Origin: Escherichia coli
GTDB lineage: Bacteria > Pseudomonadota > Gammaproteobacteria > Enterobacterales > Enterobacteriaceae
NCBI RefSeq assembly: GCF_045037415.1
Contig: NZ_CP173438.1
Strand: one strand, 5' to 3'
DNA length: 64,000 nt
Position numbers: made by a program
Shown here: one piece after another, positions 45,001 through 48,000 of the stretch
How positions within the stretch are numbered: position 1 is the first letter of the stretch
How the letters are laid out: each line of letters starts with the position of its first letter

Positions 45001-48000
45001 ATGATAAGTTTATTTATTGTGATAATGTTCAGAATCCAGATGAGGTGATTAAAAAATCTGATGATATTGATACAAGTGGATTTATTTTTGAAAATGATAA
45101 AATCTACTTTATAACTTTGGGCAGACTTTCAGTCGAAAAAGATCAACAAAAGTTGATTAATGCCTTTTGCAGATTACAAAAATTATATCCTAATATTGAG
45201 TTATTAATTCTTGGAGACGGCCCCCTCAAGATTGATTTACAACGCCAGATTATAACTTTAGGACTTGAAAAATCCGTACATCTTCTGGGACGCATATCAA
45301 ATCCTTTTCCACTGCTAAAGAGAGCTGACTGTTTTGTCCTCTCTTCAAATCATGAAGGGCAACCTATGGTTCTTTTCGAAGCAATGATTCTAGATAAACC
45401 TATAATATCAACTGACATTACTGGTTCTAGAAGTGCTCTTGAAGGGCGTTCTGGTGTATTAGTTGAAAATAGTGTAGACGGTCTCTTCAACGGAATGCGG
45501 GACTTTATCTTGGGAAGGTTGGAGTTTAAACATTTTGACATTGAATCTTATCAAAAAAATGCTTTGTCGATGTTTTATGAAAAATGCCTTCATTAAAGCA
45601 TTAATCTATATCATGATCGTCAAGAACCATTGATTGATTTGTAAGGAGGTATACCTCCTTACAAATTAAAGTAAATTTAGTTAAGTTAATAAATAATTAT
45701 GAATAAGACAGTTTTACATATTAACAGTAATATAACCACAGATGAAATTAGTTTATTGTTGCAGGCATCCAAGTATAAATATATTCATTTTGAAATAATT
45801 GGGAAAGGTGATTCATGTAAAAATTTAATTGAGTTTTCATATCATGATTATAATTTAAAAAAACAATTAATTGCTTTAACTAATGCTGGTTTTATGTCGT
45901 ACGTTCATCGTGGAAATGTAACTTCATTGGTTCACTTTGATGAGATAAAAAACCTCTGGATTCCAGTAAAAGAAAAAAAGTTTTCTATTAATTCTGATGG
46001 GATTGTATATACGTTACAACGGGCTGCATGCAAAATAAATGAAAAGCTACTGATTGTTTTCTCTCAGATGCCAATTGAACCATATTCTGCAAGCTTGTAC
46101 AGATATTTTGCAAAAAACTTTTCTACAATTGATAAATATATTGGAAAAAATGTTTCTATATTAAGAGTGGCTGATATCGGAGGAATTACTGGCTCATTTT
46201 ACTTAAATACAAATGCATTACCAACCAATGCTGATAAAATTAAAAGCCTTATATTAGAAGTTATTGAACAATGTCAAATAAAATCAGATGATGTCGTACT
46301 TTATGGATGCTCAAAAGGAGGTACGGCAGCCGTTTATCATGGATTAACTAATAATTATAAAATAGTAGCGGTGGATCCTATATTAAATGATGAACATTAT
46401 ATAAATAATAAAAATGATCTACATTTAATAGAGGGAGTTTTTCCTCAGCCAAAGGAAGAGTTATTCAAAAAAGTCATTGATGACTATTTAATAAACTATA
46501 AGGGGAATATGTCTTATTTTATTGTTTCACAAAATTCGGAACAGTACAAATATATTATGGATATTATAAATCCAATCATCACTTATTCAACAGTTGCAAA
46601 TAGCATCAATGATAAAATTAAAAGCCATCCTGATGTTGGGCCACAATCAATTCATATGATTGTAGCAATGATTAATATGGCTCTTTCTGGAATAAAACTA
46701 TCTAACGGCATCTATGATTTTGTTTAAATAATATGGCTTTAAGATTAAATTCTGTTTTTATACTTGCGGTGATTTGCAGTATCCAAATTTGTAGCGCTGC
46801 TATTTTAAGTAAAAGCTATTCACATAATGATATTCATATCACTCTGCCATTATTATTTAATGAGTACGATGATGTACTCAGTCAGTATGACGGGGCAAAA
46901 TATTTATACCCTAGTTCATTTGCTCTTGATGATGATAATAATATTTATATTCAGTATATTTTTGAGCCAAAACAAAAGGATAATATATTAGTTTGTTATA
47001 ATAAAAAAGGAAATTACCTTGGGTACTATAAGATACCAAGTGGTGGGCGAGGCGGGGCTGGCGAAGGTTTGGCTATTATACAAGACTATAATGGGTTTAA
47101 TGTTGTATATGTCGTTTCGAATACGGGAACCTTGCAAAGATATAATATGGTGAGTAGCTTGTATGGTGACAGATTATTTAAGGAAAGAGATTTTTCAATT
47201 AATGCTTTTAACCAATTTTCGATGAGTCAAGACTATTGGCTTATTGAAGGTTATGAAAGCGAAAGAAGTATAAAGTATAGTAGAAATAGACTTGAACTAT
47301 ATTCAGTAAGTGGAGATTTATTAAGAGTAATTTATTTACAGAATAATTATTCTGGATATATTGTATCAGATGCGAGTCCTGATGCAAAGAATTATAATAA
47401 AAGACAAGGGATAGCTTTAGGTGATGGTTTTTTTGTTGCTAGTTATGGTGCCTTTTACTATTCCAAAATGGAAAGTACTTATAATACATATCAAGGCATT
47501 AGAGTTTTTGATTTTTCCGGAAAGCTTTTATCTGAAAAAATTTTCCATCCAAATGAAATGATGAATGTTCTCAAAAAAATGGGCTTAACAGTTTCTAGAA
47601 TTGAAAATGAGGGAGTGATAGTCAAGAATAATACTATTTACAGTATGTATATTTATAGTGATAGATACCATCATAAAACCTCCAGAAGTGAAGGGATCAT
47701 TATTCTACTGGATGAATTTACTCAATAAGAAATCAGACGAGTTTTCATTATATAAAAGTGATATGTTTATATGGTAAAATAATTATATGAACTAAATATA
47801 TAGGAATATATTTTTATGAGTCATATAGTTATAAAAATAAGGATTCTTGAAGGTAATGCTTTTATTCTACGTTGATAATTTAGAATAAATTATGATATTG
47901 ACTTTGATCCAAACAAAAAATCTTTATTCATACCCAATGCATTCTCAAATTTTACTCCTCCATAATAACCCCCATTAACCTGCGTCTTCACCAATAAATA

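Follow-up and report, generated by a model that had tools for sequence, protein, structure and literature searches.

KslD and KslE at the end of the Escherichia coli K2 capsule cassette: a putative polymer O-acetyltransferase and a predicted exported beta-propeller shared with phage tail spikes

Among the capsule types of uropathogenic and bloodstream Escherichia coli, K2 is a common one, and its galactosyl-glycerol-phosphate polymer is teichoic-acid-like. The assembly of group 2 capsules is described as wholly cytoplasmic and followed by export. O-acetylation usually shapes capsule antigenicity and vaccine design, and the K2 variant K2ab is O-acetylated. In synthase-dependent pathways, exported and polymer-directed accessory proteins are encoded within the biosynthesis operon (AlgL, BcsZ, PslG, PelA and PgaB), although they are dispensable for polymerisation as such. 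In the literature examined we found no mention of an AlgL/BcsZ-type counterpart for the ABC-transporter-dependent group 2 capsules, nor any description of a periplasmic polymer-processing protein for group 2 capsule loci.

An acetyltransferase of a capsule polymer has been described in Neisseria meningitidis serogroup A: CsaC (SacC, PDB 6yuo) is a cytoplasmic protein of a region-2-type locus, with an alpha/beta-hydrolase fold and a Ser nucleophile, and its donor is acetyl-CoA (PMC7501274). Another group of capsule locus proteins is the XcbB/CpsF family, which includes the protein of PDB entry 9hvz and Cps7E in Actinobacillus pleuropneumoniae, CshD in N. meningitidis H and CsxB (XcbB) in N. meningitidis X; the function of CshD and CsxB has been listed as "unknown" (PMC3647402). 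The enzymes that make Gal-Gro-P polymers already serve as a toolbox for cell-free antigen synthesis (PMC8262930, PMC11666461).

Here we analysed the last two genes of region 2 of a K2 group 2 capsule locus, kslABCDE, in a 64-kb stretch of E. coli DNA (the window). In this part the sequence is 100% identical to E. coli CFT073, and the two open reading frames which the initial annotation had placed at 45699-47728 exist as described there and coincide with the CFT073 RefSeq coding sequences C_RS17510 (342 aa) and C_RS17505 (331 aa). By position, as the fourth and fifth genes of the operon named kslABCDE in the literature, they are kslD and kslE. The genes of region 2 are arranged as follows:
40084..45596, + strand: kslA, kslB and kslC, given as context (Pfam and NCBIfam; roles of the homologues Cps7B/C/D according to PMC11666461)
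45699..46727, + strand: kslD, 342 aa, ATG start; XcbB/CpsF-family protein of predicted alpha/beta-hydrolase fold, cytoplasmic, putative acetyl-CoA-dependent capsule O-acetyltransferase
46733..47728, + strand: kslE, 331 aa, ATG start; predicted exported five-bladed beta-propeller, a homologue of the central domain in phage tail spikes and fibres

According to Pfam and NCBIfam, kslA encodes a glycerol-3-phosphate cytidylyltransferase, kslB a Cps7C-type protein with TPR and LicD-like parts, and kslC a polymerase of 1266 aa composed of TPR, TagF-like and GT4 parts; these three would be the makers of the polymer on which KslD and KslE would act. kslD and kslE thus form the accessory end of the K2 cassette. 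The same searches support the earlier view that neither protein is a nucleotide-sugar enzyme. Both had also been called unassigned, which holds for the 331-aa protein, a "hypothetical protein" in RefSeq, and not for the 342-aa protein, which RefSeq labels as XcbB/CpsF family, a family for which our literature search found no published function. Remote homology searches and structure prediction, two of the checks that had been proposed, led from KslD to the XcbB/CpsF family and the alpha/beta hydrolases, and from KslE to tail-spike homologues and a five-bladed propeller.

By its profile match KslD is a member of the XcbB/CpsF family, since it scores 301.3 bits (E 6.5e-90) against NCBIfam NF033892, whose curated cut-off is 125 bits, over profile positions 1-290 of 291. 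Its AlphaFold (AF2) model (pLDDT 93.6, pTM 0.92) predicts an alpha/beta-hydrolase fold: Foldseek returned 612 matches in the PDB at E<=0.001, and the best 50 of these 612 are all alpha/beta hydrolases, headed by Gap2/Asp2 (6oyc_B, E 1.7e-8). The protein has no hydrophobic segment (maximum KD(19) 1.36). The residues proposed to form its active site are the following:
46305..46322, + strand: nucleophile elbow G203-C-S205-K-G-G208 (GCSKGG, residues 203-208), from family conservation and position in the model
46374..46376, + strand: D226 in the VDPI motif, candidate catalytic acid, invariant among 51 homologues and directly after strand 221-225
46416-46418, + strand: D240, the other Asp invariant among the 51 homologues
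46626..46628, + strand: H310 in the HPDV motif, candidate catalytic His, invariant, in the loop after strand 297-302

GCSKGG had been noticed as a possible serine nucleophile elbow, and the alignment and the model bear this out: G203, S205, K206 and G207 are invariant across 51 homologues of 30-65% identity, so that the motif is not a chance one, and in the model S205 follows strand 199-204, precedes helix 206-218 and lies in an elbow that aligns with the GLSMG elbow of Gap2/Asp2. Of the HPDV motif, H310, P311 and V313 never vary in the same homologues, and D312 hardly does.

The other XcbB/CpsF members compared share with KslD the invariant Ser, Asp and His motifs and a gene position directly after the gene for the TagF-like/GT4 polymerase, although KslD is only about 33-35% identical to those of Pasteurellaceae; unlike kslD, the CsxB gene sits in a hexose-1-phosphate and not in a glycerol-phosphate capsule locus. 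More widely, in about 20 of 26 genomes a KslD homologue is encoded next to genes for TagD and a TagF-like/GT4 polymerase. A profile search connects the family to PDB entries 9hvz, 9hwh, 9hwi and 9i87 (E 6.6e-101), one of which is labelled "_ ACoA"; the crystallised protein is the A. pleuropneumoniae orthologue of KslD and is encoded directly after cpsABCD. Our literature search found no functional study of 9HVZ/9HWH/9HWI/9I87, Cps7E/CshD or XcbB/CsxB as acetyltransferases.

Outside the family, weak profile matches of KslD lead to SacC/CsaC, Asp2/Gap2 and DltD, of which we take SacC/CsaC and Asp2/Gap2 to be alpha/beta-fold O-acetyltransferases. The match with CsaC/SacC is marginal and local (E 0.073, 15.3 bits, about 60 residues around the elbow), and for this reason KslD is not assigned to the CsaC family but only likely works in the same way; KslD also exceeds CsaC by about 90 residues, having an additional region at its N-terminus, and the acceptor polymers differ. 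Asp2/Gap2 of the accessory Sec system (PDB 6oyc_B, 6lnw_B), the best Foldseek match, is also the best sequence match outside the family; the GxSxG elbows align, with 16% identity over 257 columns and a TM of 0.48, and Asp2, unlike KslD, belongs to a Gram-positive glycoprotein export machine. An older database name of KslD, "PLP-dependent lyase/thiolase", is spurious, the PALP match being below threshold (16.9 bits versus a cut-off of 35).

Taking profile and model together, KslD is most likely a cytoplasmic O-acetyltransferase of the Gal-glycerol-phosphate polymer. Polymer O-acylation, one of the guesses of the initial annotation, is the best reading of this putative enzyme because, besides elbow and fold, there is a crystal structure of a family member deposited with acetyl-CoA. 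The candidate triad would consist of Ser205, His310 and an Asp; an acetyl group would pass from acetyl-CoA to Ser205 and from there to hydroxyls of the nascent polymer, the K2 polymer being the presumed substrate, and acetylation would precede export by KpsMT, as described for CsaC in meningococcus A. Natural kslD alleles that are truncated or disrupted by insertion sequences are present in K2 genomes, as expected if KslD is a dispensable decorating enzyme.

KslD might instead be an esterase, a thioesterase or another enzyme of acyl or phospho transfer, or it might assist the polymerase without being a catalyst; in each case it would be needed to assemble or prime glycerol-phosphate polymers. 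Its homologues are almost always found beside TagD and TagF-like/GT4 genes, Gram-positive loci included, a linkage tighter than expected for an optional decoration, and the K2 and N. meningitidis H loci retain a kslD-type gene in the absence of a Cps7A-type primer transferase. Moreover, CsxB belongs to the KslD family and, to our knowledge, the meningococcus X capsule is not O-acetylated, so that not every XcbB/CpsF member need be an acetyltransferase. Against a priming role, the loci of A. pleuropneumoniae and B. trehalosi carry both a CpsA-type gene and a kslD homologue, the fold of KslD is that of alpha/beta hydrolases and not GT-B, and CsxB did not extend Kdo acceptors in vitro (PMC11666461). 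With the acetyl-CoA of the A. pleuropneumoniae entry and the disrupted alleles of some K2 genomes also weighing against it, we judge this alternative unlikely, and acetyl transfer is retained for KslD. A more specific proposal, that KslD or KslE is the missing Cps7A-type transferase adding glycerol phosphate to poly-Kdo, is rejected: neither protein has a GT-B/Glyphos_transf domain (no match to PF04464), the A. pleuropneumoniae loci hold CpsA, a separate Glyphos_transf gene of 380 aa, besides the XcbB homologue, and CsxB is inactive on Kdo acceptors.

The product of the last gene, kslE, differs from KslD in being predicted to leave the cytoplasm. Two features were delimited in it:
46733..46801, + strand: Sec-type signal peptide of KslE (residues 1-22 or 1-23), from sequence features and hydropathy, with predicted cleavage after C-S-A or S-A-A
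46832..47716, + strand: beta-propeller domain of KslE (residues ~34-328), from secondary structure in the model and superfamily conservation

The N-terminus, MALRLNSVFILAVICSIQICSAA, contains one positive charge, a hydrophobic core of about 14 residues and small residues at -3/-1. The hydrophobic, signal-like segment that had been noticed there stands out clearly, with a Kyte-Doolittle mean (11-residue window) that peaks at 2.84 at residue 7 and reaches 1.55 at most elsewhere in the protein; an equivalent segment is found in 12 of 12 homologues, in most of which it ends in an AXA-like site, and AlphaFold models residues 2-19 as a low-confidence helix preceding the folded domain. The signal peptide, judged by inspection, hydropathy and conservation in these 12 homologues, is thus predicted to be of Sec type, and would place KslE in the periplasm. 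The earlier guess of a periplasmic processing factor fits KslE, given this predicted signal peptide and a propeller that is putatively polymer-directed.

In the structural model the folded domain is a five-bladed beta-propeller. KslE had no Pfam match at E<=0.1, and neither the family profile nor a broader profile found a solved sequence relative. The residues of the propeller that are conserved in the superfamily are E111, E172, R184, K223, Q225, R289, E291 and E293, which are also invariant columns in a second alignment; among 123 homologues from outside capsule loci, Q225 and E291 are kept in 100%, E293 in 99%, K223 in 98%, E111 in 89% and R184 in 84% (KslE numbering). In the model, most of these Glu, Arg, Lys and Gln residues are found where a strand begins, or immediately ahead of it, in one blade after another.

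The relatives of this propeller are for the most part phage proteins. The KslE profile finds 256 proteins, 174 of them at E<=1e-10, and a tblastn search with KslE gives matches in 38 phage records. With the central domain of the tail spikes or fibres P0070-P0072 KslE shares 36-39% identity. At the N-terminus these tail spikes bear T7-type or tail-collar adaptors, at the C-terminus S74 chaperones, and in P0070-P0074 and in gp17 of Kayfunavirus the order is adaptor, beta-propeller, stalk and S74 chaperone, as in endosialidase-type tail spikes. The KslE-like propeller, which is five-bladed and not related to sialidases, sits where K1 phages have their sialidase propeller; when such phage genes are labelled "endo-N-acetylneuraminidase", the name derives from the shared C-terminal chaperone only. 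One tail fibre joins a KslE-type propeller with a GDSL esterase. KslE itself, as its sequence indicates, is a stand-alone protein of 331 aa in a chromosomal capsule operon, with no virion adaptor, and shares a domain with the tail spikes but not their role in the virion.

Two labels that these matches might suggest do not hold. KslE residues 28-324 match phrog_22693 (E 8.2e-17) at positions 438-732 of a 968-position profile, and the "glycerophosphoryl diester phosphodiesterase" label of that profile is not transferable to KslE because the match is confined to the middle of the profile and a GDPD (TIM-barrel) domain was absent from 10 of 10 KslE homologues scanned. The best structural match of KslE is the receptor-binding protein Gp45 of Staphylococcus aureus phage phi11 (PDB 5efv), but the superfamily HMM does not detect Gp45, so a sequence relation is rejected and the likeness is one of fold only.

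Among 5426 complete E. coli genomes, 18 carry the prophage tail spike P0071. K2 is present in 16 of these 18, SCU-101 and Ecol_AZ146 among them, and absent from the other two, Nord58 and B19695, compared with a K2 frequency of 140 of 5426 overall; this co-occurrence involves clonally related genomes. In the capsule loci of Escherichia, Pantoea, Rahnella and Atlantibacter the cassette ends with kslE, conserved at 35-57% identity, and the gene is full length in 140 of 140 E. coli K2 genomes; a DNA search set to find distant alleles returned kslE in the same 140 genomes only. A Gal-Gro-P backbone of this kind is also the product of the polymerases of N. meningitidis H and A. pleuropneumoniae, and no KslE homologue was found in their loci; KslE is therefore not needed for synthesis or export.

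These observations suggest that KslE is a protein that recognises the K2 polymer and probably cuts it, because its propeller is the tail-spike central module of prophages found almost only in K2 strains. In the mechanism that we propose, KslE would be exported by the Sec pathway, its conserved Glu, Arg, Lys and Gln residues would probably line a central funnel and form a site recognising the K2 repeat, and the same module would serve phages as the central domain of their tail spikes. The most likely activity of KslE would be that of a K2-specific hydrolase, periplasmic or at the cell surface, by which polymer is trimmed or cleared through cleavage of either the phosphodiester or the galactosidic bond. 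AlgL, BcsZ, PslG, PelA and PgaB, although they differ from KslE in pathway and in fold, are comparable in being exported, polymer-directed products of a biosynthesis operon. We consider the whole model, with KslD as a putative capsule O-acetyltransferase and KslE as a putative periplasmic or surface hydrolase specific for K2, slightly better than an even chance. A wider version, in which KslE would be the founder of a new depolymerase family for teichoic-acid-like (glycosyl-glycerol-phosphate) polymers, acting as periplasmic K2 trimmer and as catalytic tail-spike module both of K2 coliphages and of staphylococcal phages that target teichoic acid, is put forward tentatively, as a possibility we would sooner doubt than accept.

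The main rival of a hydrolase is a non-catalytic, K2-specific lectin of the periplasm or surface, which would guide the polymer through KpsE/KpsD or hold it on the cell, the phages using the module purely for receptor binding. Such a role agrees with phi11 Gp45, which is described as a teichoic-acid-binding platform (PMC4901313) and not as an enzyme, and the tail fibre with the additional GDSL esterase would also fit pure binding. On the other hand, a set of three to four invariant or nearly invariant Glu plus Arg, Lys and Gln, most of which stand where strands begin, typifies catalytic or metal sites more than sites that simply bind an anionic polymer; in the podovirus-type spikes (adaptor-propeller-stalk-S74) the propeller is the sole candidate enzymatic module; and loci with the same kind of backbone export their polymer without KslE. 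We therefore regard the lectin as rather unlikely. It is very unlikely that KslE is a domesticated tail-spike fragment retained as a defence against phages (it might mask or alter the K2 receptor), or a protein with no capsule function, even if most members of its family are phage tail proteins and its capsule-locus form is confined to a few Enterobacterales: the G+C content of kslE is about equal to that of the rest of region 2 (~30%), its position 3' of kslD is fixed, with its start nearly overlapping the kslD stop codon, the gene is conserved over four genera with a signal peptide throughout, and it is intact in all 140 K2 genomes. For the same reasons kslE is under long-term purifying selection within a biosynthetic operon.

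A last proposal concerns the sugar itself, since K2 has both galactopyranosyl and galactofuranosyl residues, as stated in the title of Fischer et al. 1982 (cited in PMC5974469). Neither the window nor any K2-like locus fetched contains a gene for UDP-galactopyranose mutase (glf), and KslE is the gene of K2-like loci that is missing from the N. meningitidis H and A. pleuropneumoniae loci; KslD or KslE might thus account for the galactofuranose repeats that set K2 apart from the polymers of N. meningitidis H and A. pleuropneumoniae 3. The folds of both proteins are unlike that of the FAD-dependent mutase. Moreover, the ring would have to contract in already polymerised sugar, outside the cytoplasm and with no nucleotide sugar involved, for which we know of no chemical precedent, and we hold this explanation to be highly improbable.

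Of the two proteins, the exported propeller in our view matters more than the O-acetyltransferase reading of KslD. A conserved, polymer-specific periplasmic protein encoded in region 2 would add a step to the group 2 assembly model and, if KslE is indeed a trimming enzyme, group 2 capsules would have their first described step of polymer processing in the periplasm. The tail-spike homology points to the module by which phages recognise K2; for use in typing or as an anti-virulence agent, a KslE-type propeller is a candidate depolymerase or probe specific for K2, and a depolymerase of the KslE family, if real, would be a ready K2-specific enzyme. A K2 O-acetyltransferase, once named, would complete the enzymatic toolbox for Gal-Gro-P polymers. 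The carriers of K2 among E. coli include CFT073, ATCC 25922 and some ST131.

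The two adjacent genes that the initial annotation had placed between 45699 and 47728, with products of 342 and 331 aa, are present, both on the plus strand, within a 30% G+C island (40-48 kb of the window) flanked by DNA of 50-55% G+C. It forms region 2 of a capsule locus of the group 2 (kps) type, organized as follows:

38580-40084: kpsM and kpsT, upstream of region 2
45699-46727, plus strand: kslD, 342 aa
46733-47728, plus strand: kslE, 331 aa
47890-55876: kpsS, C, U, D, E and F, downstream and convergent

The kslD-kslE stretch is 100% identical in E. coli CFT073 and in 139 further complete E. 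coli genomes, and one genome matching it is labelled O6:K2:H1. Papers on CFT073 name the operon kslABCDE, in which our two genes, by position, are kslD and kslE; RefSeq lists the same CDSs of CFT073 as 'XcbB/CpsF family capsular polysaccharide biosynthesis protein' and 'hypothetical protein'. The first of the three upstream genes (40096-40491) encodes a TagD-type glycerol-3-phosphate cytidylyltransferase (TIGR01518, E 2.7e-37; PF01467, E 1.7e-24), the second a protein with TPR and LicD-like domains (Pfam/NCBIfam), and the third a 1266-aa polymerase with TPR, TagF-like and GT4 domains. Their counterparts in Actinobacillus pleuropneumoniae are Cps7B, Cps7C and Cps7D, enzymes that make a poly(glycerol-phosphate) linker and a galactosyl-glycerol-phosphate polymer (PMC11666461). 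In the literature on ksl we found deletions of the whole operon only and no single-gene mutants. The RefSeq name of the first gene (C_RS17525), 'pantoate--beta-alanine ligase', is a misannotation, its Pantoate_ligase match reaching only E 6.6e-5.

The GCSKGG motif, proposed in the initial annotation as a possible nucleophile elbow, lies at residues 203-208 of KslD. Remote homology and structure prediction uphold an alpha/beta-hydrolase elbow but not the description of the protein as unassigned, since it is a further member of the known and named XcbB/CpsF family (NCBIfam NF033892, 301 bits against a cut-off of 125). No Pfam family scored above threshold, Asp2, PALP and Abhydrolase_2 being sub-threshold. 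Across 51 aligned homologues (30-65% identity) the invariant positions include G203, S205, K206, G207, D226, P227, D240, H310 and P311. In the confident AlphaFold model (pLDDT 93.6, pTM 0.92) S205 connects a strand to a helix, as in a classical nucleophile elbow, and the Foldseek matches listed were all alpha/beta hydrolases, with Gap2/Asp2 (6oyc_B) at the top. The hydropathy scan found no hydrophobic segment, so KslD is predicted to be cytoplasmic.

Against PDB sequences, the KslD profile matched 9hvz, 9hwh, 9hwi and 9i87 at E 6.6e-101, entries named 'XcbB/CpsF family capsular polysaccharide biosynthesis protein' and 'bacterial protein _ ACoA'; Asp2, DltD, acyl-protein thioesterases and SacC/CsaC, the meningococcus A capsule O-acetyltransferase, followed as marginal matches. 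The crystallised relative is identical to a 346-aa protein of A. pleuropneumoniae whose gene lies directly 3' of cpsA-cpsB-cpsC-cpsD, where CpsD has 1138 aa, the length of Cps3D. The function of the family appears to have been solved structurally; our literature search found no publication on these structures or on family function. CshD of N. meningitidis H, which occupies the same locus position as KslD, is related to Cps7E, and both CshD and CsxB of serogroup X are given as 'unknown' (PMC3647402).

A linkage scan with one genome per species yielded 26 loci, in about 20 of which the KslD homologue adjoins genes for a TagD-type cytidylyltransferase and a TagF-like/GT4 polymerase, for example in Bibersteinia trehalosi, Actinobacillus vicugnae, Paracoccus, Gemmobacter, Psychrobacter, Stenotrophomonas, Halomonas and the actinobacterium Paenarthrobacter. 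The XcbB/CpsF family therefore travels with glycosyl-glycerol-phosphate polymer machinery. Homologues adjoining TagD were also found in two Firmicutes:

L024, 10001-10663: XcbB/CpsF homologue of Enterococcus dispar
L025, 2887-3495: XcbB/CpsF homologue of Listeria ilorinensis

The family is therefore not confined to Gram-negative capsules. A weak TagF-like match also lies beside the Listeria homologue, and no GT4 polymerase match was found at either locus; in E. dispar a gene for a KpsT/TagH-like ABC ATPase is a further neighbour. In Halomonas binhaiensis (L003, 7227-15199) the genes encode TagD, a LicD-like protein, a 254-aa protein of no assigned family, the XcbB homologue, an 850-aa TagF/GT4 polymerase without TPR and an O-antigen-ligase-like Wzy_C protein; that stretch yielded no kps export genes, and the same biosynthetic module may be joined there to another export or ligation route.

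Disrupted forms of kslD exist. In one complete K2 genome, strain S1-KEN-05-A (NZ_CP145689.1, 784451-786255), the gene is split by IS1, and the protein collection holds an IS-flanked 284-aa form of KslD and a 198-aa C-terminal fragment (P0003, P0006), the latter representing 183 member sequences. Judged from these sequences, kslD looks dispensable, and strains in which it is disrupted may be non-acetylated K2 variants. Taking together family, fold, residues, the ACoA-labelled structure, linkage and dispensability, we consider that KslD is probably an acetyl-CoA-dependent O-acetyltransferase, decorating the polymer ahead of export. An O-acetylated K2ab variant is known from the older serological literature, and this activity would account for it. 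The meningococcus X capsule is not known to be O-acetylated, although CsxB belongs to the same family. For KslD we propose a mechanism of the CsaC type (PMC7501274), which passes through an acetyl-serine intermediate.

As regards the rest of the cassette, a single-domain TagF-like transferase of the Cps7A type is absent from K2 region 2 (40084-47728) and from the N. meningitidis H locus (L033); the A. pleuropneumoniae locus (L031) has one (380 aa, PF04464), and there the enzyme joins the first glycerol phosphate to poly-Kdo (PMC11666461). The K2 polymer contains galactofuranose, according to the title of Fischer et al. 1982 (cited in PMC5974469), and a tblastn search with E. coli K-12 Glf, covering the 64-kb window and the K2-like loci L002, L004, L005, L035 and L038, detected no gene for UDP-galactopyranose mutase. 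Between kslC and kslD, at 45635-45668, an inverted repeat that includes the palindrome TTGTAAGGAGGTATACCTCCTTACAA can form a 15-bp stem without mismatches, closed by a loop of 4 nt. The RNA has a folding energy of -23.9 kcal/mol (z -4.6), a stability that was not reached by any of 200 shuffled sequences. Since no T-run follows the stem, this is no terminator of the classical kind; the hairpin could stabilise the mRNA or serve in its processing.

KslE begins, as the initial annotation had noticed, with a hydrophobic segment typical of a signal peptide, and it is hypothetical in public records. It matched nothing in Pfam or NCBIfam, so that a standard family assignment failed; the remote homology search and structure prediction placed it instead among the five-bladed beta-propellers of phage tail spikes and fibres. 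A word-indexed search returned only 13 relatives, 12 of them full-length (about 330-350 aa), all 12 with an N-terminal hydrophobic segment that mostly closes in an AXA-like site. At every locus examined, the orthologue is the last gene of the same five-gene cassette and adjoins kpsS (Pantoea, Rahnella, Atlantibacter and another enterobacterial assembly; 35-57% identity). In E. coli the gene occurs in exactly the 140 K2 genomes, full length in each. KslE itself was missing from its own matches because the protein collection puts it with KslD in one 90%-identity cluster (1762 members), a grouping that has the appearance of an artefact and may stem from a fused gene call.

Searched against 1.8 billion representative proteins, the KslE profile had 256 matches, 174 of them at E<=1e-10; nearly all of these relatives have 600-1000 residues, with the propeller central (median 117 residues before it and 235 after). 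PHROG and Pfam scans identify them as tail fibres or tail spikes, with T7-type, tail-collar or TSP1/Gp66 adaptors at the N-terminus and an S74 intramolecular chaperone at the C-terminus; KslE itself matches phrog_22693 at E 8.2e-17. Its identity to the propellers of the nearest tail spikes, 36-39%, about equals that to its most distant capsule-locus orthologues. GenBank phages with the domain include Kayfunavirus and other coliphages, Salmonella and Erwinia phages and many staphylococcal phages. In phage vB_EcoP-U8 (L030, 3248-6103) it lies in a 951-aa gene directly 3' of the gene for internal virion protein gp16. The label 'endo-N-acetylneuraminidase' carried by this and several other coliphage and Salmonella phage tail genes does not fit their central domain, a KslE-like propeller and not a sialidase, and seems to derive from the shared S74 domain.

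An E. coli prophage tail spike with such a propeller (P0071), encoded beside holin and endolysin genes, was found in full length in 18 of the 5426 complete genomes of the species; its N-terminal adaptor alone occurs in 476 more, the prophage family therefore swapping receptor modules. Using the propeller part of this spike joined to part of kslE as query, we found kslE in 16 of the 18 carriers, against a K2 background of 140/5426 (hypergeometric P 2e-24, which overstates independence since several carriers are clonal); the other two lack K2. This propeller variant is almost restricted to K2 hosts, as expected if the module recognises the K2 polymer, and we think it likely that KslE is exported and K2-directed.

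What KslE does with the polymer is less certain. Among 123 homologues from outside capsule loci, Q225 and E291 (100%), E293 (99%) and K223 (98%) are the most conserved polar residues, followed by E111 (89%), R184 (84%), D66 (79%) and R289 (75%); a smaller alignment adds E172 as nearly invariant. In the predicted secondary structure most of these residues fall at or just before strand starts in successive blades, a position that lines the central funnel in propeller enzymes. Several invariant glutamates have basic neighbours, which points to acid/base or metal-assisted chemistry acting on a glycan with phosphodiester linkages, and in tail spikes of adaptor-propeller-S74 architecture the propeller is the sole candidate catalytic module. 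The main rival is that KslE is a lectin; according to a published proposal (PMC4901313), the propeller of Gp45, the receptor-binding protein of S. aureus phage phi11, binds wall teichoic acid decorated with GlcNAc in a cavity on one of its faces. Gp45 was not detected by sequence with the KslE superfamily, so this relation holds at the level of fold only, and PDB profile searches found no solved sequence relative of the propeller family, which also has no Pfam entry. We regard a hydrolase as a tentative reading of KslE.

A KslE homologue is absent from the loci examined in N. meningitidis H and A. pleuropneumoniae, whose polymerases produce a Gal-Gro-P backbone of the same type (PMC8262930; PMC5974469); KslE therefore has an accessory role with respect to synthesis and export. 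In the pathway we propose, KslA, KslB and KslC would build the polymer on the poly-Kdo glycolipid, KslD would O-acetylate it in the cytoplasm, and KpsMT, KpsE and KpsD would export it. KslE, exported by Sec and freed of its signal peptide, would engage the polymer in the periplasm or at the surface and, if a hydrolase, trim chains or clear stray polymer, much as AlgL, BcsZ or PslG do in synthase-dependent systems. On this reading KslD would belong with the decorating acetyltransferases, and KslE with periplasmic polymer-processing proteins that are encoded in operons and have modules in common with phage tail spikes. The current group 2 model, as the literature found describes it, includes no exported polymer-specific protein in region 2, and the propeller family was not linked there to capsule loci. 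One metagenomic tail-fibre-like protein of 1395 aa (P0095) carries a KslE-like propeller (368-671) together with a GDSL/SGNH esterase domain (824-1033), so that a single chain joins polymer recognition to a probable de-O-acetylase.
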